Assembly (NCBI GenBank): GCA_903893485.1
Contig: CAITMK010000014.1
Span: 66,144-130,143, forward strand
Direction of reading: 5' to 3'
DNA length: 64,000 nucleotides
From: Candidatus Magasanikiibacteriota bacterium
Lineage (GTDB): Bacteria; Patescibacteriota; Patescibacteriia; Magasanikbacterales; 2-02-FULL-50-9b
The notes below the pieces were generated by a model. That model was not told the DNA's origin. It did not search any database and was given only the letters and a program-made list of their open reading frames with translations. A program made the position numbers and the translations under genes. Positions 7,582-43,008 of the stretch are shown piece after piece (positions within the stretch are counted from its first letter, which is position 1; the number at the start of each line of letters is the position of its first letter).

Positions 7582-8653
7582 ATACCCGTTCATAATCCGC
7601 GACCATCGCGCGAATATCAAAATCTTTTTGCGCTTTCACGCGCGCGGCCGCACCTAATTCACGCGCGGCCGCTTGGTTTTGCCACACGCGACGAATTGCA
7701 ACTTGCAGCGCATCGACATCTTCTACTGGCACCAACATACCGGTTACGCCATCATCAATTAATTCAGGAATACCGCCCACATTACTTGCAATTACCGTGC
7801 GACCCGCGGCCATGGCTTCCATAATTACCAAACCAATTCCCTCCCAACGCGACGACATGACCACTACATCCGACGCGGCCAAATACGGCGCCACATCCAT
7901 GTGCGTGCCCACAAAATGCACGCGATCATGCATGTGATTAATAATTGCCAAATCAACTAAACTATCTTTTGCAGAACCTTCGCCGACCAACGTTAATTCC
8001 CACGGCACATCACGCAAAGTTGATAATGCATTTAATAAAATGTCGTGTCCTTTTTGTGGCTCCAAACGGCCGATCGCTAAAAGTTGCATTACCTCACCAA
8101 AAGGCGCTGGCGGAATTTGCGCAAATCGCCCAGTCTCGACCGCATTGCGAATAACTGTAATTTTATCGGTCGGAAAATTTTCTTCTTCAACTAAAAATTT
8201 TTTTATGCCGTCGGAAGCCGCAACCACCGCGCTTGATCCGTACGACAAAACTTGCTTGATACGATGTTTTAATTCACCAATATCAACATCAGTATTTTGC
8301 TCCGAAAAAACTAAGTGTGGCACGCGATTTAATTTCGATGCGATCTCGCCCCACAAATGCCCGCCAAATAAATGTGTGTGTACAATGTCTGGCTCCAAAC
8401 GATTCAAAAGTGCGATTAATTCCACCAGCATCACGAGCCCCAATTCCGATGTTTTTTTAAGCGGATAATATGGCACGCCAAGTTCGCGAATGTCGGCTTC
8501 AAGCGGGCCGCCATCAACAATCGTAATTACCGCAAAATCAAACGCGTCGCGATTTCCATAGCGCACCAATTCCGTCAAAATGCGTTCCGCGCCGCCGAGC
8601 GCCAGCGTTGGAATAATATGCACTACTTTTAGTTTTCGAGTTGCGGTGTTCAT
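7559..8653 (-). CDS. Glycosyltransferase family 4
   Basis: GGAER, GRLEPQKG, EGIGLVIMEAMAAG. ATGA overlap with the upstream gene. Confidence 0.92.
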   Translation of the reverse strand: MNTATRKLKVVHIIPTLALGGAERILTELVRYGNRDAFDFAVITIVDGGPLEADIRELGVPYYPLKKTSELGLVMLVELIALLNRLEPDIVHTHLFGGHLWGEIASKLNRVPHLVFSEQNTDVDIGELKHRIKQVLSYGSSAVVAASDGIKKFLVEEENFPTDKITVIRNAVETGRFAQIPPAPFGEVMQLLAIGRLEPQKGHDILLNALSTLRDVPWELTLVGEGSAKDSLVDLAIINHMHDRVHFVGTHMDVAPYLAASDVVVMSSRWEGIGLVIMEAMAAGRTVIASNVGGIPELIDDGVTGMLVPVEDVDALQVAIRRVWQNQAAARELGAAARVKAQKDFDIRAMVADYERVYAHLAHQ

Positions 8654-9996
8654 AGAAGAGAGGCCAGACAGAGCCCGACCAGGACCCACACTTTACCATC
8701 AAAATAGCCAGTGTTAAAGAGCTGATAGGCCCACAGAGAAATAAACGTAAAAAACCAAACGGCTTCGAATGCGCTGTGGCGACGCTTCCACAAACGCCAA
8801 CCCAAACTTATGAGCAACGCCAAAAACGCGATTGTGCCAAGCGCGCCGGTTTCTGCCATCACTTTTTGCAAAAATCCGTGCGCATCGAGCGGGTCGCCGT
8901 AATCTAATCGAAACGCGGCGGTCTCGCCAACTAATTGAATAAACGTACCCGGCCCCTGCCCGGTGAGCGGCGCGCGATTAAAATACGTAAGAGCAATGCC
9001 GGTTAAATCTGTACGCGTTGCATTGCTGCTGTCGGCCACGGCGGTGTTTTCGATCCACATGAAAAATAATGCGACCACGGCAACAACCGCCACAATTGCA
9101 ACGCGCCGGCGACCCGTATGTTTTCCAAAAAACCACAGCCAGCCCAAACCTTGCAGCGCCAAAACAATCCATGCAGCGCGCGAAAAAGTTAATGCCGAGA
9201 CAATTGCAATGAGTGCCGCTGCCCCGCCCCAGAAAATTTTTGCCGCGCGCGTTTTTTGTTCACTCGCCCACCACACTGCAAACGGAATGATCGCGGTCAA
9301 ACTTTCAGCGAGCACATTATGATTCGTGCCAAATGGAATGTATCCAAAAATTGCAAATGGTTCTGCGCGCGGAAACCCAATGGAGCTGGTCACAAAAATC
9401 GAAACCGCGCCCATGAGTGCGCCCGCCAAACATGCAATTTCATACGCAACCGCGGCATAAATAATTTCTGCTCGGCGATTTACAAATAATAAAATCGGCA
9501 ACACGAACGCCAGATACGTAAAAAGATATGGCCGAAAAAATGCTTTAAGCGATGTACCAAAATAAATGGGATCACCAAAATATACCGCAGCCGCAACCGC
9601 CGCAAACCAAAGCAAAAACCACGGCAAATGATTTTTGATGTGCGCGGGAAATATTTTTTTGTGATTAATGAAAAAAATTATTGGCGCGGCAACTAACAAA
9701 ATAATGGCGATAAAATCTACCACTGGCGCTTCGATGCCACCAAGATAAGGCACACGCGATAAACTTTGTTCACTTGCAAATGAAATTGCCAGCCCCGAAA
9801 GCGGTGCCGCCGCGGCAAGCGCATACACACCCCATACTGGCCGTGCAACGACCGCAATAAAAATTGCTAACAGCGCAAAAACAATTACCACGCCCGCCCA
9901 TGAAATATAAAAAGAGGCCGCAATGCTAAGCGCAATTGCAATTCCAAACCACGCTACCAATTCCCATGTGGCACGTTCAATGAGCTGCTGTTTCAT
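8650..9996 (-). CDS. O-antigen ligase/polymerase (Wzy_C) family membrane protein
   Basis: Multiple TM helices, TFSRAAW, and PLTGQGPGTF..AHG..AETGALG. Confidence 0.88.
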   Translation of the reverse strand: MKQQLIERATWELVAWFGIAIALSIAASFYISWAGVVIVFALLAIFIAVVARPVWGVYALAAAAPLSGLAISFASEQSLSRVPYLGGIEAPVVDFIAIILLVAAPIIFFINHKKIFPAHIKNHLPWFLLWFAAVAAAVYFGDPIYFGTSLKAFFRPYLFTYLAFVLPILLFVNRRAEIIYAAVAYEIACLAGALMGAVSIFVTSSIGFPRAEPFAIFGYIPFGTNHNVLAESLTAIIPFAVWWASEQKTRAAKIFWGGAAALIAIVSALTFSRAAWIVLALQGLGWLWFFGKHTGRRRVAIVAVVAVVALFFMWIENTAVADSSNATRTDLTGIALTYFNRAPLTGQGPGTFIQLVGETAAFRLDYGDPLDAHGFLQKVMAETGALGTIAFLALLISLGWRLWKRRHSAFEAVWFFTFISLWAYQLFNTGYFDGKVWVLVGLCLASLL

Positions 9997-10058: not shown

Positions 10059-10373
10059 CTACTGTGCAAATCGCAACTCAGCAATTTGTTCGGCGCGTTT
10101 TAAATAGCCGACAATTTCATCGTGAAAATTGAGATTATCGTTGCGAAACAGTTGCATTTCTGTGGTTAGACGCTGCTCAACGTCTGTTAAGCGTAAATCA
10201 ATCGCTTCAATCCGTGCACTCAACCTTACTTCAACATCGTCGATTTTGGCAGTCAAATTAGTTTCAACTTCATCAATCCTTGCCGTTAACCGATCTTCGA
10301 CATCTAAAACCTGCTGCGTGGCTTGCACCGCAACCGCGCCAATCATTTCAATAATATCACCCTCCTTGATCAT
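10059..10373 (-). CDS. Small coiled-coil protein with 11-residue repeats
   Basis: LTARIDEVETN / LTAKIDDVEVR / LSARIEAIDLR. TTGACA-N17-TATAGT upstream; no SD. Confidence 0.7.
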   Translation of the reverse strand: MIKEGDIIEMIGAVAVQATQQVLDVEDRLTARIDEVETNLTAKIDDVEVRLSARIEAIDLRLTDVEQRLTTEMQLFRNDNLNFHDEIVGYLKRAEQIAELRFAQ

Positions 10374-10493
10374 AATAAAAAAATATGAATAATTATTTGC
10401 ACTATACCAAACGAAAAATTTCTGTCAAATAAAAAAACGCCGACAGCTCCCGTGGGGAAACTGCCGGACATGGGGCTTTGCGCGGTCGCGTGA

Positions 10494-10988
10494 TTAGCCG
10501 CCCTGCGCCTCTGCACTGCGCCGGATGAGAACCGCCTCGGTTGGAGGCATCCGCATCTCTTCGAGCAGCCGTTGCAGCGACACGTGGTTGATGCAATTCC
10601 ATGTGCTGTAATGGATCGCCACAATGCCGTAGTCGCGCACGCTCTGCACGACCTCCGCGTTTTCATCGACGACGACATTGACTTCAAGCTCCTGGCACAG
10701 CACCGCCTTCTTGGAATCGTCATCGACCACATGGACATTGATGAGCGACGCGGCGAAACCGTCGAGCCAATACTTGAGCCACTCCTGCAAGAGATCGGCG
10801 TCGAGCTGCTCGCGCCCCGGCTTGGTGACGAAAACAAGGTTAACTTGATGTGAGCGCACGGCCCACATCAGTGTCTCGATCGCTTTTGGAAAAAACGGCA
10901 CTTTGCCGAATCCCCCGCGTTCGAATGCCTCGATTTGCGCGCCGTTAAACAGCGCCAAAGTATTTGCCACACCAAATGCAATTCGCAT
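10494..10988 (-). CDS. Hypothetical protein with a degenerate HAD/5'-nucleotidase-like fold
   Basis: GGAGG SD; TTGACT-N17-TATGCT promoter. MRIAFGVANTL and K..LCQELEVNVVVDE resemble HAD motifs I, III and IV. Confidence 0.65.
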   Translation of the reverse strand: MRIAFGVANTLALFNGAQIEAFERGGFGKVPFFPKAIETLMWAVRSHQVNLVFVTKPGREQLDADLLQEWLKYWLDGFAASLINVHVVDDDSKKAVLCQELEVNVVVDENAEVVQSVRDYGIVAIHYSTWNCINHVSLQRLLEEMRMPPTEAVLIRRSAEAQGG

Positions 10989-11145
10989 GACACCCTCCAT
11001 GAGTTGTGAAACTCGAGAAAAAAGCATACCACAAAATGGCCCGAAAGTCAAGGGTAATAGCTGCTTTTTTGTTCAAAATATAAAAATAAAAACAGGCAGC
11101 AACTTTTTGCAAAGTGCTGCCCGGAGCGAGGACGACGCGATCGCG

Positions 11146-11901
11146 CTAATCGTCATACGCTACAGAAACCTTGGTTGAACTGAACTGCGCCTCGCGCTTC
11201 ATGTCCAGGATAAAGTCCACTGCCTCGCCGTTGCTGCGATACGAAAGCTCGGACTGGTTGCAATCTGCCACCGCGCGCAAACCATTTTGCACGGTCGTGC
11301 GCACCAGCAGGTTGGCATCCTTGGAATACTGGCCGTCGTTGATAACCTTCACACGGACCGTGGCGCCACGCTTGCCAAACACGCGGATCAGCGTTTCCGC
11401 GCCATCGTACGGACCTTTGGTAATTTGCCGCGGGCACATGTAATTGAGCACGTGCGGCGCATTATCCTTCGTCCATTCTGAGCGTGGAATCACCTGCGGA
11501 ATTTGCAACTCCGCAGACTTTTCGGACAAATGGAATGGCGCCCGCTCCGCATATTCCAGAAATTTCTCGAACGCGACATCTTGCGTCGCCGTGTCGGTTG
11601 GCGAGCATGCCATTTGCGCCGCCGTGCCGCCGTTGAACAGCTGCAATTCGCAGTACACGTCGTGGATCTGTTCTGCAGACGAGGCGGCCTCTGGAAGTCC
11701 AACCGCCACGGATGTCACCGCTTCAATTGCAGGCGTCGGGTCCGACGGCACAATGTTCGCGATGAGTTCCTGGCGATACACGATGCACGCAATGAGAACC
11801 GCCAACGCCGCAGAAATAAGCAGCGCGCGATCAACCTGCCGCGCGTTCCAAAACGACCGTCCGATTTCACTTACCGGAATTCCTTTTGGGAATTTTTTCA
11901 T
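11146..11901 (-). CDS. Hypothetical single-TM extracytoplasmic protein
   Basis: GGAGG SD; TTGACA-N17-TATGGT promoter; N-terminal TM helix. Confidence 0.7.
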   Translation of the reverse strand: MKKFPKGIPVSEIGRSFWNARQVDRALLISAALAVLIACIVYRQELIANIVPSDPTPAIEAVTSVAVGLPEAASSAEQIHDVYCELQLFNGGTAAQMACSPTDTATQDVAFEKFLEYAERAPFHLSEKSAELQIPQVIPRSEWTKDNAPHVLNYMCPRQITKGPYDGAETLIRVFGKRGATVRVKVINDGQYSKDANLLVRTTVQNGLRAVADCNQSELSYRSNGEAVDFILDMKREAQFSSTKVSVAYDD

Positions 11902-11929
11902 GAGTCCTCCAACTCGGTGAGGGGGAAAG

Positions 11930-12313
11930 TTACCCGGGCACCATACCGGATTTTGGGGGTTTTGTCAATGGTGAGAGGGCCAAAAACTTTTGCATTTCGA
12001 TACAGACTTTTTCGTAGAGATTTTTTTCTGAGACGCGGATTGCGCAGAGACGCTGCGTGGCCCAAAGACGGAATTGCATGCCACGAACTGCCCGGAAATT
12101 CCGGACAGTTGGATTTCGCTCTAATTCACCCTCTTCGTACAGTTTCTGAACATGTTCAGAAACAGTGCGTTTATCTTTTTGAAAAAGATCGACCATTTGC
12201 ATAAGACTCAAACACACCGTTTCGTCCTGCAAACGCACCTGAACCTGCAGCGATCCATCGGCAGCTTCGTATAAAATAATTTGGTTTTGATGTTCCCCGC
12301 CCTGAGACAACAT
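11930..12313 (-). pseudogene. Internally deleted RhuM (virulence_RhuM) family remnant
   Basis: QIILY..DG..VQVRLQDETVCLSLMQMVDLFQKDKRTVSEH..YEEGEL, RGMQFRLWATQRL and IRVSEKNLYEKV are joined directly, without the segments that normally separate them. Confidence 0.75.
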
Positions 12314-12547
12314 ATTTTTAAAATTAAAATGGCATGCAAAAACTATGCCCGAACAAAAACCGAATGTCAAGAGTGGTTATGCACTTTTTGTGCACAGAAA
12401 ATTCCGTGAAATAAAAAAACACCACACCGCTTGAGCATCCTGGGTAGGATTGCAGCAAGCAATGTGGCGTCACTCAACTCGTTGTGTGAGTGTGACCCTT
12501 TCGGATCATTGCAGAGTCGCCGTTACTGAGGCGCTACTGCGTTGGAA

Positions 12548-14464
12548 CTACTGCGGCGTGAACGTGAACTTCGCGGTGCCCTTCACGTAGCCGTTCAGGT
12601 TCTTCGGGCCAGAGATGCCGTCGAACCAGAGGCGCTGATTGGGCTGACCCGTGCCGCTGAAGCTGATCGCCGTCTGACCGCCTTGCAGGCAATCCGACGC
12701 CGTCATTTCCTTCGGCAAATCCGGCCCGCAATTGACGGTCTGCTGCAGCATCATGAGGATGCTGGTGGAAGGCGAAACCGTCTTGTCCGGCGCAATCGTG
12801 ACCGAGACCTTCACGCTTTGCGGCGCGCTGATCACGTACACTTGCTCCGGGCCAGTCGCGCCCGAAACCGTCATGCCGTCCGCGCACGTCCATTTGTCCA
12901 CCGTTTGCTTTCCGGCGGGCGCAGTGGTCGTGTCGACGTTTTTGCTAATGACGAGCGTGCCGCTGCCCGTGTAAGTAACGTAGACCACGTCGCTGCACAC
13001 ATCGCACGCGCCGCCTTCGTCGATCTGCAAGTTGCAGTTGTCGTCGAAGCCGTTGCAGACCTCCGGCGCATTCGGGTGGACGCTCGCCTTCGAGTCGTCG
13101 CAGTCCGTGTCGTCAAGGATCCACTTGCCCACGGGCGCGCATGCCAGCGTCGTCACGGCCGCGTTGCCGTAGCCGTCGCCATCGCCGTCCCAGTAAAGCG
13201 TCAACTTCACGCCCTCGTCGATCTGCTTGTCGCAGTTGTCGTCGAGGCCGTTGCAAACCTCCTTGGCGCCCGGGTAGATGGCGGCGTTGGTGTCGTCGCA
13301 GTCCGTCGAGTCGCTCACGTAGCCGGCCGGAGCCGAGCACGCTTGCTTGGTGCTGCTGAGGTTGCCGAACTTGTCGCCATCCGTGTCGGCGTAGTAGGTC
13401 GTCTGAACGCCCTCGTCGATCTGCTTGTCGCAGTTGTCGTCGAGGCCGTTGCAAACCTCCTTGGCGCCCGGGTAGATGGCGGCGTTGGTGTCGTCGCAGT
13501 CCGTCTTGCTCGTGACCTTGAAGTTCGCGTCTGCCGAGCACTGGCACGAACCGCTACCGGCGCCGTAAGTGTCACCGTCCACATCAGCGTAGAACCAGGT
13601 GCAGTTGAGCACGTTGCCTGCCGGATCGACGCTGCCATCGCAGTTGTCATCGACGCCCACCGTACTGCAATCGTCCATGATGCCCGGGTGAATCTTGGGA
13701 TCCAGGTCGTTGCAGTCATCGGAACTGGTCACGTAGTTGAGCGGCTCGGTGCAGCCCATCTTCGTGCTCGAGGAAAGGCCATGACCGTCGCCGTCGCCGT
13801 CGAAATAGAACGTCGTCTGGACGCCGTTGTCGATGACGGTGTCGCAGTCATTGTCCTTGCCGTCGCACGTTTCCTTGACCGGCAGACCCTGCGTGCACGT
13901 CGGATTGGGGTCCAGCGTGCCGTCCGGTTTGCATGCCAAAGCGTCGCAGGCGCATTCGCCGACGCCCACTTTGGTGCCCGGAAAGCTCGCCTTCGGCGGC
14001 GTCATGCACAAGAAGCGCGTGATGCCGTCGGTGGTTTCCAGCGGCACGGGAACCGAGTCCACGCACTTGCTGTTGGTCGAGGCCGCCACCGCCGCATCGC
14101 AGCCGCCGGACGAAGTGCTGAACGACGCGTCGTCGAGACCCAGCGGCGAAGCCGAGCAATCGAACGCCATCGCATCGAAGTTGTACGGGCAATCCGGCGC
14201 GAGCACGCACTTCTGGATGCTCTTGTTCCACGCCCACTTGGTGCGGTGAATCGGATCATCGGGCAGCGCGTCGCACAGCGTCTGGCTGATGGCCAGCTTG
14301 GCCGTGAGCGCGAACGATTGCGAGCCGAACGTCGCCGTCGGCGCTTGGGGCGCGGTTTTCACCGCATCGAGCACCGCAGAACCGCTCTGCGGTGCGGTCG
14401 GACCGGCACAGCCGATCAGACTTGCCAGCGCACAAAGCGCCAGCAAAGGGTTGAACTTCTTCAT
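12548..14464 (-). CDS. Cys-rich lipoprotein with MopE-related putative metal-binding repeats
   Basis: Lipobox LIGC; repeated DCDD..A.IYPGA.EVCNG.DDNCD.QIDEG and YxDxDGDGYG motifs; AGGAG SD. Confidence 0.88.
   Translation of the reverse strand: MKKFNPLLALCALASLIGCAGPTAPQSGSAVLDAVKTAPQAPTATFGSQSFALTAKLAISQTLCDALPDDPIHRTKWAWNKSIQKCVLAPDCPYNFDAMAFDCSASPLGLDDASFSTSSGGCDAAVAASTNSKCVDSVPVPLETTDGITRFLCMTPPKASFPGTKVGVGECACDALACKPDGTLDPNPTCTQGLPVKETCDGKDNDCDTVIDNGVQTTFYFDGDGDGHGLSSSTKMGCTEPLNYVTSSDDCNDLDPKIHPGIMDDCSTVGVDDNCDGSVDPAGNVLNCTWFYADVDGDTYGAGSGSCQCSADANFKVTSKTDCDDTNAAIYPGAKEVCNGLDDNCDKQIDEGVQTTYYADTDGDKFGNLSSTKQACSAPAGYVSDSTDCDDTNAAIYPGAKEVCNGLDDNCDKQIDEGVKLTLYWDGDGDGYGNAAVTTLACAPVGKWILDDTDCDDSKASVHPNAPEVCNGFDDNCNLQIDEGGACDVCSDVVYVTYTGSGTLVISKNVDTTTAPAGKQTVDKWTCADGMTVSGATGPEQVYVISAPQSVKVSVTIAPDKTVSPSTSILMMLQQTVNCGPDLPKEMTASDCLQGGQTAISFSGTGQPNQRLWFDGISGPKNLNGYVKGTAKFTFTPQ
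13209..13505. repeat. Exact 99-bp intragenic direct repeat (13209-13307 = 13407-13505)
   Basis: Both copies encode TDCDDTNAAIYPGAKEVCNGLDDNCDKQIDEGV with identical nucleotides, 198 bp apart. Confidence 0.9.
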
Positions 14465-14708
14465 CTTTGAAATCTCCTGTCAAAAAACACGATCGCTCTT
14501 TCGAGCCTCCCTCCCCACCGCGCACTCGCGCAGTAGGTAATTGTCGGCGCCGGGATAAAACGCCTGACGAATTCATCTCCTTATTGATGTCGTCAGGATT
14601 TTCATCTTTTAAAAAATAGGACCCCGGCAGCAGCAGCGTTCTTGCCACTGCTACCGGGTGAATCATTTCTCGTCTGATTCAGACGTTGCGCGGCTCGTTG
14701 GCCTGCGC

Positions 14709-16397
14709 TTACTTCTTGAACTTGGCGCACCAATCCACGACACCGCCTGGACCAAACATGTCCGGCAAAGCGATGTTGCTCTCGATGTCAAAGTCACCGG
14801 GACCCAGATCCACGAGCGGCACCAAAGCGCCGAGCGGATCTTGTACCGTCATGTACGGACCGCCAATCGCGTAGTGATCCTTGCCCTTGTTGAGCATGGA
14901 ATACGCGGTGCCGCCAAATTCGATCGGCGGAGTACCCTTGGCCGCGCCGACGTCGTACGCGTCACAAAACAGCTGCGCCGAGATCTTCACTTCGGGCGAG
15001 ATGCCCGAGATGTAGTTCGGAGCACCCGCCAGCTTGAAGTAGCCCCAGCTATTCCCGATAGTGGTCAGGATCATAGCATACGGCGCCGGCGCGTACAAGC
15101 CCATGATGTCCGAGCTTTCGCCCGTGCTCATCGTGAAAAACAGCGGCGTCCATTCACAGCCAACCTGCGAGTCGCAGGTGTCCAACGTCCAGTACTTCTG
15201 GTCGTTGCACTTGGCGGTGACCGTTGCGAAGGACCACGGAACAAACTGGCAGCCCAGCAGCGGCAGGCACGAATCGTCGGTGCACTTGTCGCCATCATCG
15301 CACGTCACGACCGTACCCTTGCAGGCAGCGGTCTTGTCGCAGATGTCGCCGTCTGTGCACAGATTGCCGTCCGTGCACGACTTGCCCACAATGGGCAGGT
15401 GCTTGAACACGCCGGTCTGCGGATCACACTTGGCGTCCTCCGTGCATTCGTTGCCGTCGTCCTCGAGCTTGGCCTCCGACAAGCACTTGCGCAGATCCGT
15501 ATCGCACGTCACCTGGATGCACAGATTGCCTTTGAATTGCGGCTGCGCGAGGCAGTCCGCATCCGTGTTGCAATCGTACGCCGGCAAACCTTCACAGGTG
15601 CCGGCCGTGCAAACGTCATTCTCCGTCGCCGGATTCCCGTCGTCGCACTTGCTGCCATCCTTCAGCTCCGCGGTCTGGCAGCCCAGCTTGGCGTCGCAGG
15701 AATCGGTCGTGCACGGGTTGCCGTCGTCGCACTTCAGGGTCGAACCTTTGCATGCGCCGACCGCACAAGTATCCGCTGTCGTGCATACGTTCCCGTCATC
15801 ACACGCCGCCGTGTTGTTCGCGTAGACGCAGCCCTTGGCTTTGTCGCACGAGTCATCGGTGCATGCGTTGCCGTCGTTGCAGGGCAACGTCGCGCCTTCG
15901 CACGAACCCGCCTTGCAGCTGTCGCCGGTGGTGCAGGCATCGCCGTCGTCGCACACGATTGCCGTGGCGATTGGTGACGCGACGCACTTGCCGAGCTTGG
16001 CATCACAGCTGCTGACGACGCACGGGTTGCTATTGTCGCAAACCACGGACACGCCCTTGCAGTAGCCAACGCCATCGCAGGCGTCGCCGGTGGTGCACGC
16101 GAGCTTGTCGTCGCACGCCGTGCCTTCCTTGGGATACGTCGCGCCTTTCGGCCGAACGCATTGCCCGGAAACGCACGTGAACTGGACATCGCATGTGGTC
16201 TTGTTCAGCGGCGCGCAATCCGGATTCGTTTCGCACAGCACGATTTGTGCCACAGAAACGTCCGGCGCGGGCGCCTGAACATCGACCTGAACGCTGCCGG
16301 CGTCCTCGGTGGGCGCGCTACCGCCCGAACCAGCTGCCTGCGTACAGCCCGCGACAATCGCGAACGGCACGCAGAGTTTGATCAAACGCGTGAACAT
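14709..16397 (-). CDS. Cys-rich lipoprotein with CDDGNxCTxDxC (Dictyostelium CTDC-like) repeats
   Basis: Lipobox VAGC; about a dozen CDDGNxCTxDxC-type units; GGAGGT SD. Confidence 0.88.
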   Translation of the reverse strand: MFTRLIKLCVPFAIVAGCTQAAGSGGSAPTEDAGSVQVDVQAPAPDVSVAQIVLCETNPDCAPLNKTTCDVQFTCVSGQCVRPKGATYPKEGTACDDKLACTTGDACDGVGYCKGVSVVCDNSNPCVVSSCDAKLGKCVASPIATAIVCDDGDACTTGDSCKAGSCEGATLPCNDGNACTDDSCDKAKGCVYANNTAACDDGNVCTTADTCAVGACKGSTLKCDDGNPCTTDSCDAKLGCQTAELKDGSKCDDGNPATENDVCTAGTCEGLPAYDCNTDADCLAQPQFKGNLCIQVTCDTDLRKCLSEAKLEDDGNECTEDAKCDPQTGVFKHLPIVGKSCTDGNLCTDGDICDKTAACKGTVVTCDDGDKCTDDSCLPLLGCQFVPWSFATVTAKCNDQKYWTLDTCDSQVGCEWTPLFFTMSTGESSDIMGLYAPAPYAMILTTIGNSWGYFKLAGAPNYISGISPEVKISAQLFCDAYDVGAAKGTPPIEFGGTAYSMLNKGKDHYAIGGPYMTVQDPLGALVPLVDLGPGDFDIESNIALPDMFGPGGVVDWCAKFKK

Positions 16398-16679
16398 GAT
16401 AAACCTCCGAAACAAGTTGAGACACTGTTGGCACACAAGAAAAAGAGCCGAGGAGCAACCGCGAGAAATAACCGTGAGGAATCTCCCCGCAGATCAACCC
16501 CCGACGCCAAAGAATTTGGAGAGGGAGCGACATATGAGAGTATCACAATCCCGCAACAATGTCAAGCCTCTAAAATAAAAAAAGACCCCCGAAACCAACC
16601 GCGCGTGATGCGTTGTTGGTCCGGGGAGTCGGTTGTGGTATTGGGCGCCGGTCGGCGATGCAATACGAGGGGGTGACCG

Positions 16680-18032
16680 CTAGAAGAAGCGATCGAGGAT
16701 GCGGTAGGCGTCGCACGTAAGTGTGCCGAACATCGCCGTCTTGCCCGTACCGGCCGGCAACGTACCGTTGCTGATCGTGTACTGGTTCGGGACGATGTAG
16801 TCGACCGTCGTCACGTTGTTCGGGCCCGTGGTAAGGACCTGAAACGCGTGATTCGTGCCGACTTTCTTGGTTGCCGACGTGCAGCTTGAGCCGATGTAGC
16901 CGGGCGAGAAGTCGCCGGCCGCCCACTTGATGTAGAAGCCCGCGCCGTTCGCGCTGCTGTTCACCTTGCTGCACCACTTGTTGCTCACGCCGACCTGGGT
17001 CATGTTGAGCGAGTCGCCGTCCAAGGACCAGATGCCGCCGTACACGAACTCGCCGTTCACGGAAACGATCTGATCATCGGCCTGCACGCACACTTTGTAC
17101 TGGCCGCCGCTTTGCGCCGGCGTTCCGGTGTGCGAACACGTGATCTTGCTGGTGTCCGTGGTGGGCGTGGTCGTGCCGGTGCACTGGTCGAGCGTCGCGG
17201 CGTTGGCGTCATCGCAGAGGAAATCCGCGCTGACGGTGGGGTCAGTGGTCGGCGCGCAGCCGATCTGAATCCCGTTTTGCCACTGGCACATGCCTTTCAG
17301 CATGGCCTGCTTCTGGACGCCTTTCGCGCTGCAGTAGTACGTCGGCGAACCGTCGCACAAGCTGGGATCCGAGCAAGCGAACACGCCATTCAGCGCGTTG
17401 CACGCGCCGGTGAGCGAGTTGCAGACCTGGCCCGCCGGGCAGCTGTTTTGCGTGCAGCTTTGCGGCGCCGTGTTGGGAGTGTTGGTGCACTTGAAGGTGT
17501 TCCAATCCCCCGTGCACGAATCAGTCGTGCTCGGATCGTTGTCGCTGCAGCTGTAGGGCTGCGACGGCTGATTCGAGTCGTACTCGCAGTACTGCCCCGC
17601 GCCCGTGCCGAAGCACATGCCCGTGAAAAAGTACTGCGTGGCCACGCCGGCATCACAATGACGCGACGTCAGCTGACAGGTGACCCCGTCGCAGACGTGC
17701 GCCACTTTGTTGGGATCCACCTGCGGCACCGAGCACACGCCCGTGTCGCAAATCTGGTTCCCGGTGCACGTGCCGCACGAGCCGCCGCAGCCATCGCTGC
17801 CGCAGTCGTGCGTGCCGCACTTGGGCGTGCACGCGTCGGCCGAAGCCGTCGCGTCCGTGCCGTTGCTGGTGTCCGAGTTGCTCGCATCCGCCGCCGCGCA
17901 GCTGGCGCAGTCCGTGGACAAACCCACAATGGGCTGGTCGGCAGGCTGGTCGACCGGGATGGCGCAGCCGGTGAAACCGGTGGCGCAGACCAACGCACAC
18001 GCGATGGCCAGAAACTTCTTGACGTTCAACAT
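16680..18032 (-). CDS. Cys-rich lipoprotein (myxobacteria-type CGxDGCGGSCGTC motif)
   Basis: Lipobox FTGC; CTPKCGTHDCGSDGCGGSCGTC; GAGGAG SD. Confidence 0.85.
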   Translation of the reverse strand: MLNVKKFLAIACALVCATGFTGCAIPVDQPADQPIVGLSTDCASCAAADASNSDTSNGTDATASADACTPKCGTHDCGSDGCGGSCGTCTGNQICDTGVCSVPQVDPNKVAHVCDGVTCQLTSRHCDAGVATQYFFTGMCFGTGAGQYCEYDSNQPSQPYSCSDNDPSTTDSCTGDWNTFKCTNTPNTAPQSCTQNSCPAGQVCNSLTGACNALNGVFACSDPSLCDGSPTYYCSAKGVQKQAMLKGMCQWQNGIQIGCAPTTDPTVSADFLCDDANAATLDQCTGTTTPTTDTSKITCSHTGTPAQSGGQYKVCVQADDQIVSVNGEFVYGGIWSLDGDSLNMTQVGVSNKWCSKVNSSANGAGFYIKWAAGDFSPGYIGSSCTSATKKVGTNHAFQVLTTGPNNVTTVDYIVPNQYTISNGTLPAGTGKTAMFGTLTCDAYRILDRFF

Positions 18033-18131
18033 GACAGACTCCTCAAGCAATAAGGCCGATTAGGCCGTGGGTGAAAAACAAACTGACACTGGAAAGGAAC
18101 GCAGAACTTCTGTGCGACGAATTACGTCGTA

Positions 18132-18227
18132 AACAAAAGCACTGAGTTCGCCTGACAAGCTGCGTGTTATGAAGGAGGGAGCATAACAGCTACTCGTCAG
18201 ACGAACTCAGCGCTCATGGCTTTTGTT
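18132..18227 (-). promoter_or_regulatory. About 95-nt hairpin in the 5' leader of the 16680 lipoprotein gene
   Basis: AACAAAAGC..CTGAGTTCG.CTGAC..TGTTATG / CATAACA..GTCAG.CGAACTCAG..GCTTTTGTT, just downstream of TTGACA-N17-GATAAT. Confidence 0.65.
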
Positions 18228-18363
18228 GTCCGGGATGCTATTATCAGATGCTTTATATTAGTTGTCAAGAAACGTCCTGTGGAAAAAAATCTCCGGGGTG
18301 GTCGACAAGCGTTATTGCTTGCCGACCACCCCTTCGTTGTTGCTCTTGCCGCCGGTTAGGTGA

Positions 18364-19335
18364 CTAGAAGCCGTACTGGATCCCGAACGTGACGCCGAGC
18401 ACCGGATCGAACTTGACGCCGTGGTCCAGGTTGCCCCGGAGGTCAAACGCGAAATTCGACTTGCCCATGAAAATCTCCGCACCCAGCGCCCCGCCGAACC
18501 GGTTTTCCGTCACATTGTGACTGAACCCGTTTTCAGCGATGCTGACCGCGTGGAAGCCGGCGTAGATCGCAAATTCGCGATGAAAATCGATCTTGGCCGC
18601 TGCCAGGTAATCGATCTCCGCGTGATTGTCGCCGCCGAAGGCCATGCGCACATCGAACTTGCCGTCCAGCCACTGGTGGCCGAACGATTCGATGCCGAGG
18701 CCAAAGCCACCGATGCCCGTCTGGTTCACGCCGCCGAAACCGGCGAGGATGAACTTCCACGAGGACGGCACGTTGGCGATCGGATTGACCCGGGGCGCCT
18801 GCGGCACGTACTGCTGCGGTTGCGGCTGCGGCGTGACCAGTTCCTTCCGGAGCTGCTTGAGCCCCGTCCACGCCGCCTGGGCGATGACCAAAGCCTCGCG
18901 AGCTTCGGACGCCGTCTGCAGCGTGTTGACCAGGATGCCGGCCTGCCGCGCCCGCATCAGCCGCAACGCGACGTCGTCGTCGTGATACTTGATCACTTCG
19001 ACGATGCGCGTGGCGGACACCACGCAACGGGGGTTGCGGAGCTGATCGTGAATCTTCTCGAGGGCGCTCACGCGCACGACGAGAGACGTGATCAGCTGCT
19101 GCGACAACCCGTTCGCACTCGCCTGCCCAGCCATCTGCTGGATCGTGGCGTTGCGCTCGGTCTTGGCCATGTCGGTCAACGTATCGACCGCTTTCGCCGC
19201 CTCCGCCCGCATCTCCGGAGAGAGCGGGCGATCGTCCGGCGCAGCGGGCGCCAAATTGACCTGCTGCGCAAACGCAGCCGGGGCCGAGACACAGAACATC
19301 AAGGTCGCCATCGCGACCGTCATCAACTTCTTCAT
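18364..19335 (-). CDS. Secreted protein with a helical N-terminus and a C-terminal outer-membrane beta-barrel-like domain
   Basis: Sec signal ending AFA; alternating amphipathic Gly/aromatic strands; ends GVTFGIQYGF (beta-signal-like); AGGAG SD. Confidence 0.75.
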   Translation of the reverse strand: MKKLMTVAMATLMFCVSAPAAFAQQVNLAPAAPDDRPLSPEMRAEAAKAVDTLTDMAKTERNATIQQMAGQASANGLSQQLITSLVVRVSALEKIHDQLRNPRCVVSATRIVEVIKYHDDDVALRLMRARQAGILVNTLQTASEAREALVIAQAAWTGLKQLRKELVTPQPQPQQYVPQAPRVNPIANVPSSWKFILAGFGGVNQTGIGGFGLGIESFGHQWLDGKFDVRMAFGGDNHAEIDYLAAAKIDFHREFAIYAGFHAVSIAENGFSHNVTENRFGGALGAEIFMGKSNFAFDLRGNLDHGVKFDPVLGVTFGIQYGF

Positions 19336-19588
19336 GACGAACTCCTACACAGTAAAGTGACCGCGAGGGCCACGAAAGAAACTACCAGTGAAAAGGGCGC
19401 GTGCTAAGTATCCGATCGGACACCTACCACTTCTGCTTTTGAGAGCATATCTGTACTGCCTAAAGCAACACGGACATGATCTTAAAATAATCGTCCTGGG
19501 GAGCGAAATCGTGGATTCGGCGGTTGCCTTATCACACTTCTTCGCTCCCCAAGGAGTTTGCGCCCCAGTCACTTAGGGGCATTTGGCG

Positions 19589-20275
19589 CTACGGCTGCCG
19601 CAGGAAGCCGTTCGCGCGCGCCTCGCCGTCGGCCCGCGCGCTCGCATACGCCTGATTCAGCGTGCGCAGCTCGCGGCACTGTGCCGGCGTCGGGTGCGGC
19701 TCGCCGTAGATCTGGCAGTCGCCGTCGCTCCGGGCAGCGCCGCGCTTGTCTTCGGACTTCGTGTGCGCTTTCGGGGCGGCGGGCTCGATCTTGATGACCT
19801 CGCCGTCGTCCTTCTTGTCGCCCGCGTCGTCGGACTTCACGTGTGCCTTGGCCTTGGCTTTCGCCTTGGCCGCCCACTCGCCCTTCCAGTTCTCCGTCGC
19901 GCCCTTGGTGGCGTCGTGGAGGCCCTTGGCGCCCAGGCAGTCCTGGTACGCAGCGCCGCACTTCGCGTTGGCCGCGTTGGCGAGTTCTTGCGCGCGCGCC
20001 TGGCAGATCTTGCCGCTCTCGCCGCAGTTGATGAACTCATGCGCCAAGATGTGCGCGACGAGATTCTTGCAGCTCGTCTGCACCTCCTCGCACGTCGAGG
20101 CCGTCGTCGGCGCCGGCACCGCAACCACCGCCGGCTTCGGCGGATCGTCGGTCGGCACTTTCACCGGGTCGACCTGCTTGGGGCAGTCCTTGCCGCAGGT
20201 CACCGTGGTGGTGCCGCACGCAGCAGCCGTCATCGCGACCAAAACCAGAACGCCAGAAACAAAAAGCTTCTTCAT
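19589..20275 (-). CDS. Hypothetical lipoprotein
   Basis: Lipobox AAAC; paired Cys; GGAGG SD; TTGACT-N17-TATTGT promoter. Confidence 0.8.
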   Translation of the reverse strand: MKKLFVSGVLVLVAMTAAACGTTTVTCGKDCPKQVDPVKVPTDDPPKPAVVAVPAPTTASTCEEVQTSCKNLVAHILAHEFINCGESGKICQARAQELANAANAKCGAAYQDCLGAKGLHDATKGATENWKGEWAAKAKAKAKAHVKSDDAGDKKDDGEVIKIEPAAPKAHTKSEDKRGAARSDGDCQIYGEPHPTPAQCRELRTLNQAYASARADGEARANGFLRQP

Positions 20276-20545
20276 TGCTTGTGCCTCCCCAATCGGTTAC
20301 TACCGTGGGATCAGTTGACCTTCCAACAATACGAACACCCCAGTGGTGACGCACGTTGTCCAGCCAAATTCAGAAAACAAACTATTCTACCAACTAATTG
20401 TACGGAACTGGAACTGTTGCCCCACGAGATAGGCTTGTGGCCGTCTCAATGTGACTTAATACAATATCACACTTTCCTGGAAAAGTCAAGGGGGTGGGGG
20501 CCATTTAGACCCTCACCCCCAAGAAATGCAAAAAATTATTAAAAA

Positions 20546-21148
20546 TTAGCCAAAAATGCCGTGTTTATGGTGCGCCAAACTATAAATAAAGCTAACCGCT
20601 CCACCAAGCAGGAATCCTGCCACTGCAATTGCCAAAAAATTAGGCTTCTGTGGATACTGCGACGCAACTGGCGAATCAATAAGCCGGTAATCTGCCGCAT
20701 TAACCGCAAAGTCATTGCCCGTTCCACCCAGCACACCCGCAACCGTGCTCGCAATCGCAACGGCCTGCGCCTTATTGGTATGATACGCGGTAATTCCTAA
20801 AATGCCGGTATTATAGGTAACACTCGCATCAATGGTCTGAGACCAAAGCTTGCGGCGCTGCAGTTCGTCTGTTGGAAAATACGAAACATCAATCCCCGAC
20901 CCTGGCACGGCAATTACACGAGAAAAAAATTGACTCGTACCAACAACTTCCGCCAAATTTTGTGCGATACGCTCAGCCGCCTTGCTGCTGGTGTAAGGAT
21001 CAACTCCCGGCGTTGCGCGCGGTGTAATAAGTAATCGAGCTTCAGCGCCATACTTAAGTGGAAAAACCACCAACGCCACGAGACATGCAACAACGGCAAC
21101 CGCCAATCCGCTGCCGACTGACGTGTACAAAGAACGAGCGTAATTCAT
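20546..21148 (-). CDS. Wzz/CapA (YveK)-like polysaccharide chain-length determinant
   Basis: Two TM helices flanking a loop; P.KYGAEARLLI N-terminal motif; Pro-rich segment before the C-terminal TM. Confidence 0.75.
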   Translation of the reverse strand: MNYARSLYTSVGSGLAVAVVACLVALVVFPLKYGAEARLLITPRATPGVDPYTSSKAAERIAQNLAEVVGTSQFFSRVIAVPGSGIDVSYFPTDELQRRKLWSQTIDASVTYNTGILGITAYHTNKAQAVAIASTVAGVLGGTGNDFAVNAADYRLIDSPVASQYPQKPNFLAIAVAGFLLGGAVSFIYSLAHHKHGIFG

Positions 21149-21149
21149 A

Positions 21150-22199
21150 TTATTGAAGATGAGAAATTTTTGTAGTGAGTGGAACCGCGAGATCAATTGA
21201 TTTTCCGCCGCGCAGTACCGTAACGTGAAGCGTTCCGTCTGCAACCGCTGCCTGCACCAAAGGAAACAATTCGGTATCACCTTCAATGGATGATCCGCCA
21301 ATTGAGGTAATTATATCATCATCTTTCAAATCTGACGCGCCACGAGTTGGACGAAGTGTTTGAACTAAAAATCCTTGGGTGCTTGTGGTTGACTCAAATA
21401 CAAATGGTGAACGAATTGAATTTGCAACTCGCACCGGCAAACTTGCGCGCGTAATGGTGCCCGCCGTAAACACTGATTGAAAAATTGGTTTAACGGCGCT
21501 CGTTGGAATAATTACCAATCGATTATTTTGTGTTGTTGCAAAACCAACTAGTGTGCCCCGCACGGTGATCACCGGAGCGCCATCAGCACTGTGCGGCACA
21601 ATTGATTCAACCACGGCGCCGGCAAACGAAAGTGTATCCGCATATTCGTACGGGCATTTATCCGCAACACAAAGTGAAGTGTCTTGCAGTGTCACGGGCA
21701 ACGCGGTATCAGGCAACACCACAATCAGGCGTGAACCGCGCGCCATGTCTGCTAAATTTTCTTCGTCTAAAATATGTAAATTTTGCGCGTGCGTTTTAAT
21801 GAATGCCAAATTGGTTGCACCGTCGACGATTGTTTTTTCGATGGGCAAACTACCAACGCCGCGTACTAATAATTTTTTTCCGCGCACCGCACGTGCGTCC
21901 GCAATAAACCAACCGTCTGAGGTAATTGCAGTTGCATATGTTGCATCAGCCGCGCCCACCACCGAAGCCACACTTTGCGTTGCTTCCATTACCCGTGTTT
22001 CATCGATGCCATCAGGAGCCTGCTCAATACGCGTTTCATATTTTGTAGTCGCGGTGCTGCCATAACTGGCATACAATAAACTCGCCACAAAACCACTGAG
22101 CGCGCCAATTAAAATCATGGCAACAAAATAACCCGTTGCTGGATGTAACGTTTGTACATTTGTATCTTCTGAAGGAATATGTGGTGCGGTAGGTGTCAT
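21150..22199 (-). CDS. HtrA/S1C protease-like protein with PDZ domain, catalytic triad degenerate
   Basis: TM anchor; ITSDGWFIAD, DGATNLAFIK, DGAPVITVRGTLVG; C-terminal LKDDDIITSIGG..VTVLRGGK. Confidence 0.7.
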   Translation of the reverse strand: MTPTAPHIPSEDTNVQTLHPATGYFVAMILIGALSGFVASLLYASYGSTATTKYETRIEQAPDGIDETRVMEATQSVASVVGAADATYATAITSDGWFIADARAVRGKKLLVRGVGSLPIEKTIVDGATNLAFIKTHAQNLHILDEENLADMARGSRLIVVLPDTALPVTLQDTSLCVADKCPYEYADTLSFAGAVVESIVPHSADGAPVITVRGTLVGFATTQNNRLVIIPTSAVKPIFQSVFTAGTITRASLPVRVANSIRSPFVFESTTSTQGFLVQTLRPTRGASDLKDDDIITSIGGSSIEGDTELFPLVQAAVADGTLHVTVLRGGKSIDLAVPLTTKISHLQ

Positions 22200-22750
22200 A
22201 GGAACCAACTAAATAATGAAACGCAAAATACAATTACGATTACAAAAATACTTGCGGTAATGATAAGACGTTTTGTGGAGTTGCCCGCGGTAATGCCATG
22301 CACAAGCGTTGCCAAAAAAGCGAACGCTGCCGCGGCCAATGCGCCACGACCAAAAAAACTTGCGGATCCAAACAAAAGAACTAAACACCAGATAGTCCAA
22401 AGCGCACCAAAAACAATTCGGGTGGTAAAATCTTTTTCAAAAAGAAAAATAAATCCGATACAAACAATAGTGGTGATAAGTGCGACTGACCAAACAGGCA
22501 TTAATTGAAGTGCGCTACAGCCATACGCAAGTGAAATCCATTCCCACGCCGCAAAAGAAAAAAGTGCGGTGCGAAGCGTTGGAAATTTTTCGGTGAGTTC
22601 GAGGCGACGCGTGACTTCGTAACCAATTGTTAGTACAAGCGCGGCAACCGCAAGCACCCACACCAATGATGACGCATCAAAAAGAAGCGCGAGCAATGCG
22701 GCGCCGATAATCGTTAAAATTTGTGCATTATATTGTACCCAGAATTTCAT
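22196..22750 (-). CDS. Hypothetical multi-TM membrane protein
   Basis: Hydrophobic ORF translationally coupled within the operon. Confidence 0.7.
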   Translation of the reverse strand: MKFWVQYNAQILTIIGAALLALLFDASSLVWVLAVAALVLTIGYEVTRRLELTEKFPTLRTALFSFAAWEWISLAYGCSALQLMPVWSVALITTIVCIGFIFLFEKDFTTRIVFGALWTIWCLVLLFGSASFFGRGALAAAAFAFLATLVHGITAGNSTKRLIITASIFVIVIVFCVSLFSWFL

Positions 22751-40952: not shown

Positions 40953-41221
40953 ATGTCTGATTCGAAGTAAGGGACTCGGAGGGCGAGCACGCAACCGAGC
41001 GTGCGCAGGTTGCATCGTGCGAGCCCAGGCCCGAAGGAGCGACATGGTTCGCGACTGAGGCGAGTCCCGCCACCACTCTCACAACTACCATATAAAATGT
41101 TTAACATTTTAATTTCAAATTGTTACACATTTTTTCTGCAATAAAAAAACACCCATCTCTCACCGCGAAATTCTGCGGATAAAGAGACGGGTGGTGGAAT
41201 ACGCTCACGCGCAAACCACTG

Positions 41222-41821
41222 TTATTCGGGGATGTTTTCCAAGTGCCAGTCGATGCTGCCATCATCAACTTCTTCCCCACCCGGAATCAGCATGGTGTAA
41301 TGGTAGTCCTGAGTGCTGACGAATCCATGCTCAACCACATTGTCAGGAATGAAAATCGGAGTGAGGCGAACGCGCACATCACACTGATCCGCATTGCAAA
41401 CCACAAGCAGCAGCGCGGCGTGCGTGCGATCGTTGCGATTGATCCATCGTTGCACTGGGGTGAGCACGTCACCATCCTGGTACAACCACGTCCTGCCGTC
41501 CTCGCTGGTTGTGCCGTGAGCAAACAAAACACCGATGCCCGAACGCTGCGTGCGTTCACCCCGAAGACGGACGTACTCCAAAAACTTTGGATCGATCTTC
41601 CGAACAAACATCTGGTGAATGTCTCGATCCAAGTAATCTTCAACGCTCTGTGATCGCTCAGTCGGCGAAGACTCTTTGCCAAGCATTTTCTGCACCGCTC
41701 CCACAAACTGCAGATCCTGCGGGCGCGGTGGCGTCGCAATTTCAAGCCGGCGCTCTGCTTCAATATCGCTGCTCACATGAACAAAAAACCCGGGGAATTC
41801 CTTACTTTCAACAACACGCAT
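41222..41821 (-). CDS. Hypothetical protein (SD-led unit)
   Basis: AGGAGG SD; TTGACA-N17-TAGATT promoter; 3' hairpin at 41143-41193. Confidence 0.72.
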   Translation of the reverse strand: MRVVESKEFPGFFVHVSSDIEAERRLEIATPPRPQDLQFVGAVQKMLGKESSPTERSQSVEDYLDRDIHQMFVRKIDPKFLEYVRLRGERTQRSGIGVLFAHGTTSEDGRTWLYQDGDVLTPVQRWINRNDRTHAALLLVVCNADQCDVRVRLTPIFIPDNVVEHGFVSTQDYHYTMLIPGGEEVDDGSIDWHLENIPE

Positions 41822-42011
41822 GTGCCCTCCTGTGTTAAACGTTGTCAGAGCGAGAGTTGATTGAAATTCAATCTAGCAAAAAGACGGACTTTTGTCAACC
41901 GTGGTATTCAACAAATACGCCGTCTTCTCTTCAATAAAAAAATCGCACCCACCCCTCACATCGTCATTAAGTTCATGATGGAAAGAGGGATGGGCACCGC
42001 GTCGCTTGCGA

Positions 42012-42785: not shown

Positions 42786-43008
42786 TTGCAACTCCTACAA
42801 AAATCGACTCAGTCAGAAGTGCGACGCGTCGTGCGCCCCCTCTCTCGCAATTACCCGTTCAGTGGGCTCGACTGGATGTGCTTTTTTAGCACAACAAAGC
42901 AATATAACACAAAAAACAAGATTTGTCAATCCTATATCAATCGCTATCTGACCGAAACGTATTGGTACAACGCCATTCACCCGTGCTACAATTACACAAT
43001 AATACGTT

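Follow-up and report, generated by a model that had tools for sequence, protein, structure and literature searches.

The nearest published report to the locus treated here is the Cys-rich cluster of Candidatus Peribacter riflensis (PMC4736985), a cluster of secreted Cys-rich proteins in a Candidate Phyla Radiation (CPR) genome that varies between strains and is accompanied by lgt and a disulfide gene; the accessible part of that paper notes a weak likeness to Myxococcus repeat proteins and proposes a role in attachment. In this work we describe an array of five co-oriented minus-strand genes (A, B, C, D and E) at positions 12548-20275 of the window, by which we mean the whole stretch of 64,000 nucleotides analysed (GenBank assembly GCA_903893485.1, contig CAITMK010000014.1, positions 66,144 to 130,143 of the forward strand), from a Candidatus Magasanikiibacteriota bacterium. 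Four of the genes encode lipoproteins and gene D a protein with a predicted outer-membrane-type barrel, and between D and C lies a hairpin RNA whose loop copies the core of the 16S anti-Shine-Dalgarno (anti-SD) sequence. The array, the class of Shine-Dalgarno (SD)-led genes with high GC at third codon positions (GC3) to which it belongs, and the anti-SD RNA are linked at one class-wide locus. The Peribacter cluster differs in belonging to another CPR class and in having much larger proteins, and the accessible text on it makes no mention of GC3, SD sequences, a split of lipoboxes, a barrel or an RNA.

The repeats of the array are those of the PF11617 (Cu-binding_MopE) and PF00526 (Dicty_CTDC) lipoproteins of Myxococcota-type bacteria and Bacteroidota, which it matches above the family cut-offs and with which it shares the plan of a lipobox, a low-complexity linker and a Cys-repeat stalk. 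The CPR proteins differ in being shorter, few per genome (against up to 142-150 matches) and provided with unrelated terminal domains, and also in that no Omp85 was found in the cell, that they occupy a fixed slot and that they form a class apart from the core genes. A likeness to TraA and TraB, the outer-membrane-exchange pair of myxobacteria, can also be drawn, since there too a Cys-rich repeat surface protein stands beside a partner envelope protein and serves cell contact, and PF00526 is noted to resemble the TraA repeat (PMC3325183, in the part available). The array is, however, anchored by lipoboxes, its gene D product has a coiled coil before the predicted barrel, and Pfam and NCBIfam gave no match in it to the TIGR04201 repeat, MYXO-CTERM, PA14 or OmpA.

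For the RNA, the comparable systems are the Cuckoo/RSs0680 (CcsR) small RNAs (sRNAs) of Alphaproteobacteria and the RNAIII with a UCCC loop, which likewise expose a hairpin loop resembling the anti-SD sequence; the Cuckoo type further shares a variable, covarying stem and a postulated pairing with ribosome-binding sites (PMC4615179, in the part available). The same part of that paper defines Cuckoo RNAs by two to four hairpins lying side by side, which are 24-50 nt long and all carry CCUCCUCCC. Identity with them is rejected here because the CPR RNA is a single 77-nt hairpin (27-31 bp) with another loop and without a match in Rfam. It differs further in the YYCCCUCCUU-type loop found across the order, in being usually single-copy and led by a sigma70 promoter of its own, and in acting, if it does, among core genes that are SD-less. 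Judged from its sequence, it would work like a trans-acting anti-SD sRNA.

Phage morons form self-contained units: each brings a promoter, an SD sequence and a terminator of its own and is atypical in composition. As far as the accessible part of the report goes, the same holds for the genomic islands of Patescibacteria (PMC12455944), and it holds for the array. The array differs from both in being orthologous across families, in a composition that has not ameliorated and in that no mobility genes were seen in it; the status of a recent genomic island is rejected, as the slot is occupied in relatives and no close donor was detected for D or for the non-repeat sequence of C. In the literature covered (mostly titles and abstract openings, with supplements and many subscription papers outside) the array, the SD/GC3/lipobox split and the RNA are unreported in CPR, and no host report was found for this CPR group; the CysRRep preprint (10.64898/2026.06.07.730663) has, in its accessible part, no bearing on CPR. 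The array is real, old and stranger than an import of genes: its parts are known, the variant is new.

Conservation of the array

The genome holding the window (948 kb, 98.85% complete, 45-47% GC; G000) changes in GC in a sharp step at the array, where the four lipoprotein genes reach 62-68% GC and all five genes exceed by far the GC3 of core genes (0.39; Table 1). Both edges are bridged by contigs of public runs (10287-13238 and 18300-22254), and in the long contigs of run X1 the depth is 7-14, even inside and outside the array, so that the assembly across the array is sound; the synteny of relatives gives independent support, the bridging contigs coming from four public lake runs of one study that may include the source sample. 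Both junctions for which the initial annotation had asked for spanning reads lie within these bridging contigs, at even depth.

The array is located within an envelope-polysaccharide locus, and its slot is conserved. The Wzz-like upstream gene was found in all five relatives searched and the ligase-like downstream gene in three of them. In a genome of the same genus (G002) five genes fill the interval, ordered as here, and in one of another genus (G006) the order is equal across a contig break, with identities to the present genome of 25/16% (G002/G006) for D, 32/30% for C, 38/41% for B and 29/33% for A. The first gene, E, is the least conserved and barely comparable, its position in G002, G006 and the metagenome locus L170 being held by unrelated or barely related SD-led genes. 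Gene B has orthologues at 38-45% identity. In G003 and G005 the end of an A-type gene (GC3 0.90-0.94) abuts the ligase-like gene, whilst in G001, G003 and G004 contigs end directly after the Wzz-like gene; altogether the slot is occupied in five of seven family genomes, the contigs of the other two stopping past the Wzz-like gene. Among metagenome loci, L170 shows the order Wzz-E-D and L172 the order D-C-B.

Beyond the family, 20 regions were chosen around RNA matches, of which 12 are SD-led, GC3-rich secreted arrays and eight lie behind rplT. The 12 arrays span families f3, f7 and f9 and three genomes of other orders; flanks outside the home family (f1) were identified by eye, and within the stretch examined the Wzz/ligase pair does not flank the arrays of G012, G028, G014 and G046. 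Array GC3 exceeds flank GC3 in all 17 genomes compared, by 0.02-0.55 (e.g., 0.86 against 0.38 in G023, 0.72 against 0.21 in G028 and 0.49 against 0.47 in G600). Between orthologues 48-73% of fourfold sites differ, and GC at these sites is still 0.56-0.87. The array is old and vertically inherited at a fixed slot.

A second class of genes

Using our own gene caller on the present genome, an SD sequence stands before 76 of 93 genes with GC3 of at least 0.6 and before 13 of 682 with GC3 below 0.5, internal ATGs serving as controls (5.5% of 272 in GC3-rich and 2.7% of 2682 in core genes). Promoter-like sites lie upstream of 68% of the GC3-rich genes against 28% of the core genes, and since the modal distance from the -10 box to the ATG is 9 nt in core genes with a strong promoter, core starts seem to be leaderless. 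The array is the extreme of this second gene class, which has SD sequences, promoters and terminators of its own and a lipobox dialect that is not the resident one. Core lipoproteins, without SD, carry signals whose last residues are G-x-G-C, with 11 such cases among the 17 pattern hits of core genes here (the other six mostly look false), three in a sample of G002 and 12 in a sample of G006; in the distant arrays and L172 this form appears in one of 13 readable lipoprotein starts (G012). The split recurs, more weakly, in the same two samples, with median GC3 of 0.59 against 0.49 in G002 (358 kb, 271 genes) and of 0.54 against 0.42 in G006 (397 kb, 310 genes).

A codon dialect of highly expressed genes was considered and does not hold for this genome, where the two ribosomal-protein clusters, 34 genes in all, show a GC3 of 0.30-0.49 and preferences opposite to those of the array; an SD sequence precedes one of the 31 scored. 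By eye, members of the class also include genes resembling adenylosuccinate synthetase (C8:15154-16539), purine nucleoside phosphorylase (C3:25376-26260) and a metallo-beta-lactamase-fold hydrolase (C8:58459-59340). Two SD-led genes, C13:21059 and C14:108155, have in common a similar leader of about 115 nt.

The hairpin RNA

The RNA shows the features of an anti-SD sRNA: a promoter of its own, a terminal U-tract, a covarying stem and an invariant, single-stranded anti-SD loop. Its leader folding has a z of -6.1, and G-U pairs assign it to the coding strand. Four array copies already differ by five double changes in 29 pairs. When 24 sequences are aligned without a model, 95.8% of the paired cells pair and covariation is 0.81 (against 0.31 in shuffled and 0.13-0.20 in slid alignments), with double changes in 25 of 27 pairs.

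A first RNA model found matches in 24 of 150 genomes of the order and a second one in 132 (88%), the family genomes without a match being the four in which the array is unassembled. The second model matched 20 of 150 genomes in a sample of the class (four of them from the same order) and six of 150 in a sample of the phylum (four from the same order and two weak), whilst none of 31 genomes around a Myxococcales-titled metagenome-assembled genome (MAG) matched. Loop, promoter and U-tract are present in all 17 order loci inspected (L242-L258), 15 of which lay outside the training set; the match in G035 (E 0.017), which lacked the loop, and the weak class matches L276 and L277, which showed none, were left out. 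Viral contigs gave no match to the hairpin core.

Two candidate properties of the RNA did not hold. SD-class starts do not fit its loop better than the 16S tail (median -9.05 against -9.3 kcal/mol), and an anti-SD motif is not general to SD-class leaders, occurring in four of 62. Behind rplT, the usual site of the RNA in the order, the present genome has a tRNA-Asp directly (C14:107365 and C12:90265 regions; about 41000-42800 of the window), and therefore the RNA was either moved or kept in its array copy alone. In G019 (locus L305, 3980-4240) the anti-SD hairpin stands three times in tandem behind rplT.

The predicted barrel of gene D

The gene D product begins with a cleavable signal peptide, followed by a helical coiled-coil part and a Gly- and aromatic-rich C-terminal stretch of 135 residues, of which approximately residues 190-323 are predicted to form an outer-membrane-type beta-barrel. 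The Atlas model of these residues aligns with OMP_b-brl clusters at template-modelling (TM) scores of 0.58-0.67 (normalised by the shorter barrel rows), and hydrophobic alternation has a z of 3.1 in D and of at least 1.7 in 11 of 14 D-like proteins. AlphaFold models of D are of low confidence (predicted local distance difference test, pLDDT, of 36 from the single sequence and 41 from eight), a fold search and a PDB sequence search with D gave no match, and one of 12 D-like proteins touched Pfam OMP_b-brl, below the cut-off.

A terminal aromatic residue marks substrates of BAM, the beta-barrel assembly machinery. Complete D-like proteins identified by position end in Phe in ten of 12 cases and in Tyr in one, against a terminal Phe in 28 of 817 genes of the genome, whilst the seven closest metagenomic homologues (P0124-P0127, P0129, L170 and L171) end in a short tail and not in an aromatic residue. 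Omp85/BamA was found in none of six genomes, the present one and five others bearing arrays, two of them single-contig, in a search whose control was positive in seven of 14 known genomes.

Affinity of the repeats

The repeat motifs that the initial annotation had read in three of the lipoproteins are there. Gene A carries five stretches of PF11617 (MopE-type Cys/Asp repeats; E 6e-43, 145 bits against a gathering cut-off of 27) and a C-terminal domain outside the repeats, gene B five stretches of PF00526 (E 6e-25, 87 bits against 27) with one exact CDDGNxCTxDxC motif and seven looser copies, and gene C a single CGxDGCGGSCGTC motif. For genes C, D and E neither Pfam nor NCBIfam gave a significant family; a related-locus search with C gave no matches, five other proteins match 8-17% of its length as short motif matches, and in the Atlas it has a weak lead to a carbohydrate-binding module (0.82).

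That such repeats are typical of Myxococcota stands for one family and falls for the other. Among the matches listed in the B-family locus scan, the best 77 loci comprise 43 titled Myxococcales/Myxococcota, 10 Deltaproteobacteria, 16 Enterobacteriaceae or Klebsiella, three Pseudomonadota, three unnamed bacteria, one Planctomycetota, one Lacihabitans and no CPR. Two enterobacterial-titled records that were checked hold 142-149 PF11617 matches, as Myxococcales genomes do, and their titles are probably wrong, the records looking like Myxococcota-type MAGs; around the match, the loci so titled (L056, L059 and 14 similar ones) have 59-72% GC. For gene A, and for its repeat part only, the 18 taxon-named records among the best 120 hits include 11 Bacteroidota and four Myxococcota, and PF11617 is present in 21 of the 41 order genomes scanned and in 37 of 401 across the CPR phylum. 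On sequence, then, the myxobacterial style holds for gene B and no donor was found for it; no close donor was detected for D or the non-repeat part of C either (E and the tail of A were not searched separately). A Myxococcota-like host lineage is suggested.

Interpretation

We prefer to read the array as a host-contact system made by the CPR cell itself and gated by the RNA, at a probability of roughly 0.45. It would likely be used in contact with a Gram-negative host of high GC, probably one resembling Myxococcota, and of the options in the initial annotation it is mimicry of, or action on, a high-GC diderm host that remains the best. The hairpin RNA would probably mask the whole class of SD-led mRNAs, core genes of this cell being translated without need of SD, and keep the array silent until host contact, upon which the CPR's own ribosomes would make its proteins. 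The cell can read SD-led mRNA, as its 16S tail retains the anti-SD sequence. Its Lgt and LspA would then lipidate the products, and DsbA and VKOR oxidise them. All of these are present, as the earlier check on lgt, lspA and dsb genes had asked: the genome encodes Lgt, LspA, VKOR and three DsbA-like proteins, and DsbB was not found in it, VKOR presumably taking that role. Cys-repeat stalks could then present their variable tips, which would bind the surface of the host or imitate it, and the coiled-coil-plus-barrel product of gene D may be aimed at the host outer membrane.

Several observations weigh against this interpretation. Elsewhere in the order the RNA lies not in an array but behind infC-rplT in 16 of 21 first matches, against four of 21 beside GC3-rich genes (both placements occur in G012 and G038). 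Its loop pairs at -6 kcal/mol or below with 89% of 88 GC3-rich starts and with 7% of 665 core starts, which for SD-led starts is partly true by definition. The ribosomal-protein clusters show codon preferences opposite to those of the array, and SD-led lipoproteins of the present genome, G002 and G006 avoid the resident G-x-G-C signal completely. Array GC3 ranges over 0.49-0.94 and is weakly tied to that of the flanks (r 0.44, p 0.07, n 17, kin not being independent). The persistence of GC-ending codons is left unexplained, and so is a terminal Phe on the barrel kept in spite of the failure to find Omp85 in the six genomes.

These difficulties are where a second explanation, which we hold to be the less likely, gains its force. 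It supposes that the SD-led class is translated by the host, once mRNA or DNA has crossed by a secretion system or by way of a cytoplasmic bridge, that the Sec, Lgt/LspA/Lnt, Lol and BAM systems of the host place the products in its envelope, and that the RNA masks the mRNAs inside the CPR. One cause would account for four departures: the use of SD, the GC-ending codons, which are unlike those of ribosomal-protein genes and follow genome GC loosely, the non-resident lipoboxes and the terminal Phe. Omp85 is missing from the findings in all six genomes and a Lnt-family gene from those in the present one; overall codon use comes closest to Myxococcota-type repeat genes with the same GC3, at a distance of 0.056 where the core lies at 0.29; a VirB4/TraG-type ATPase is encoded in all seven family genomes; and an array in another order (G608, L306 7054-8826) contains an SD-led Hanks-type protein kinase (GC3 0.71). 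On the other hand, the CPR retains the anti-SD sequence, Lgt, LspA and Dsb enzymes, the barrel fold of D is unconfirmed by AlphaFold and nearly unseen by Pfam, its closest metagenomic homologues lack the terminal aromatic residue, and the arrays of G600 and G650 hardly exceed their flanks in GC3. We know of no precedent for genes of one bacterium read by another. A delivery route is lacking too, CPR type IV systems being mostly without relaxase according to the accessible part of PMC12102498. Loss of the 16S anti-SD sequence as a proof of host translation is rejected, the sequence being intact.

It is doubtful that ABY1-type CPR possess a further set of genes, about 11% of those called here, written for and read by a diderm host, and we would likewise lean against the idea that the parasite delivers this set as SD-led messages adapted to host codons and that its lipoproteins, BAM-dependent barrel and cytoplasmic orphans remodel the host from inside. 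If true, translation by the host would represent a novel mode of parasitism among bacteria and would permit host prediction from sequence only, since the codon and sorting dialect would name the host of each uncultured lineage; that the array is a categorically new kind of parasitism seems to us rather unlikely. Under the preferred reading of a contact system made by the CPR cell, the conservative core is still that a known type of RNA, the anti-SD kind, finds a new use in a genome that is SD-less. This RNA, in 88% of the sampled genomes of the order, could switch an entire gene class via one 10-nt loop. A persistent non-resident dialect of codons, SD sequences and lipoboxes contradicts ordinary amelioration, and among the candidates for testing that the array provides are Cys-repeat adhesins, a barrel for whose insertion the cell seems unequipped and a class-wide RNA.

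A third possibility, improbable in our judgement, is a replacement slot, where control elements are inherited and coding sequences repeatedly overwritten from high-GC neighbours, sustaining GC3. Gene B is indeed about equally close to the best Myxococcota-type repeat proteins (39-41%) and to CPR orthologues in the same search (30-39%), genomes differ in gene E and in how many genes they have, and other organisms of the same lake runs share the repeat cores, in short matches only. Replacement fits poorly, however, with a gene D that has nine relatives among 1.84 billion representatives, with the CPR array context of both metagenome contigs that have flanks, with a non-repeat part of C lacking a detected donor and with the graded orthology (B is 58% identical between G002 and L172). 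It fits no better with the preference for NCG over NCC codons, which is that of the CPR core and not of Myxococcota-type genes: the GCG share is 0.66 in the array, 0.69 in the core and 0.46 in Myxococcota-type genes, and the CCG share 0.75, 0.71 and 0.55, respectively.

That the array came from Myxococcota as an island in a recent horizontal transfer, or that the assembly is chimeric, is hardly credible in spite of the sharp GC step and of best listed B loci dominated by Myxococcota, given edges bridged by independent contigs at even depth, a slot, order, promoter and RNA kept across genera and families, and no RNA match among the 31 genomes around the Myxococcales-titled MAG. Recent acquisition, the simplest form of what the initial annotation entertained, is not supported, with gene order kept across genera, silent sites turned over, no donor detected for D or non-repeat C and a CPR accent in the codons.

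Features of the locus and minor observations

Positions are collected in Table 1. The four GC-rich lipobox genes first recognised are all confirmed, each with a type II signal and lipobox Cys by pattern match and an SD-led start, and gene D, previously missed, joins them. The spacers, described earlier as AT-rich, are poorer in GC than the array genes and at 46-53% GC stand above the core intergenic median of 43%. Promoters of the backbone type had been proposed as well: TTGACA-type sites do number 12 in 10-21.5 kb (4.1 expected) and stand before E, the hairpin RNA and B, whereas no sigma70 promoter of its own was found before D or A, nor any promoter between the RNA and the start of C.

Table 1. 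Array genes, RNA and neighbouring elements, with positions in the window
Feature	Positions	Strand	Remarks
Downstream flank, SD-less core membrane protein	8650..9996	-	O-antigen-ligase-like by inspection; no NCBIfam match; glycosyltransferases after
Gene A, 638-aa lipoprotein	12548..14464	-	lipobox LIGC; SD AGGAG; GC3 0.85
Intrinsic-terminator-like hairpin after gene B	14623..14658	-	
Gene B, 562-aa lipoprotein	14709..16397	-	lipobox VAGC; 54 Cys; SD GGAGG; GC3 0.79
Sigma70-type promoter of gene B	16539..16565 (ends approximate)	-	counterparts before B in G002, G006
Gene C, 450-aa Cys-rich lipoprotein	16680..18032	-	lipobox FTGC; SD AGGAG; GC3 0.88
Hairpin RNA, 77 nt	18138..18214	-	stem of about 31 bp; 10-nt loop 18172-18181, then U-tract
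Sigma70 promoter before hairpin RNA	18240..18268	-	near-consensus, 11 of 12; kept in four homologous loci
Intrinsic-terminator-like hairpin after gene D	18295..18332	-	
Gene D, 323 aa	18364..19335	-	no lipobox; SD AGGAG; GC3 0.86; ends Tyr-Gly-Phe
Gene E, 228-aa Ala/Lys-rich lipoprotein	19589..20275	-	lipobox AAAC; SD GGAGG; GC3 0.90
Sigma70-type promoter of gene E	20461..20489	-	position matched in G002, G006
Upstream flank, Wzz-like chain-length determinant	20546..21148	-	SD-less core gene; Pfam/NCBIfam matches below cut-off

The minus-strand leaders of D (about 19400-19540) and A (about 14480-14620) each form a terminator-like stem and a second hairpin, a layout that suggests attenuation or processing and that, for D, is alike in G002 and L170. 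Between gene A and the ligase-like gene lie two SD-led orphans on the minus strand (10494-11012 and 11146-11901; GC3 0.67). Both have a promoter of their own and are followed by a terminator-like hairpin, and their position is empty of genes in G002 and G006. A short open reading frame at 11930-12370 (minus strand) with a weak RhuM match (E 0.07) is probably a remnant.

Cys-repeat genes are not confined to the array. A second slot of the polysaccharide region, flanked by homologues of C14:65394 and C14:63409, is occupied by such a gene not in the present genome but in four relatives (loci L206, L208, L211 and L213 in G001, G003, G004 and G005). Further GC3-rich Cys-repeat lipoprotein genes of the present genome lie at C3:42119-45185, C4:22280-22945, C12:133000-134667 and C15:35659-36666; counterparts of the C3 pair adjoin shared core genes in G001, G003 and G005, and small MopE lipoproteins resembling the product of the C4 gene are found across the family.

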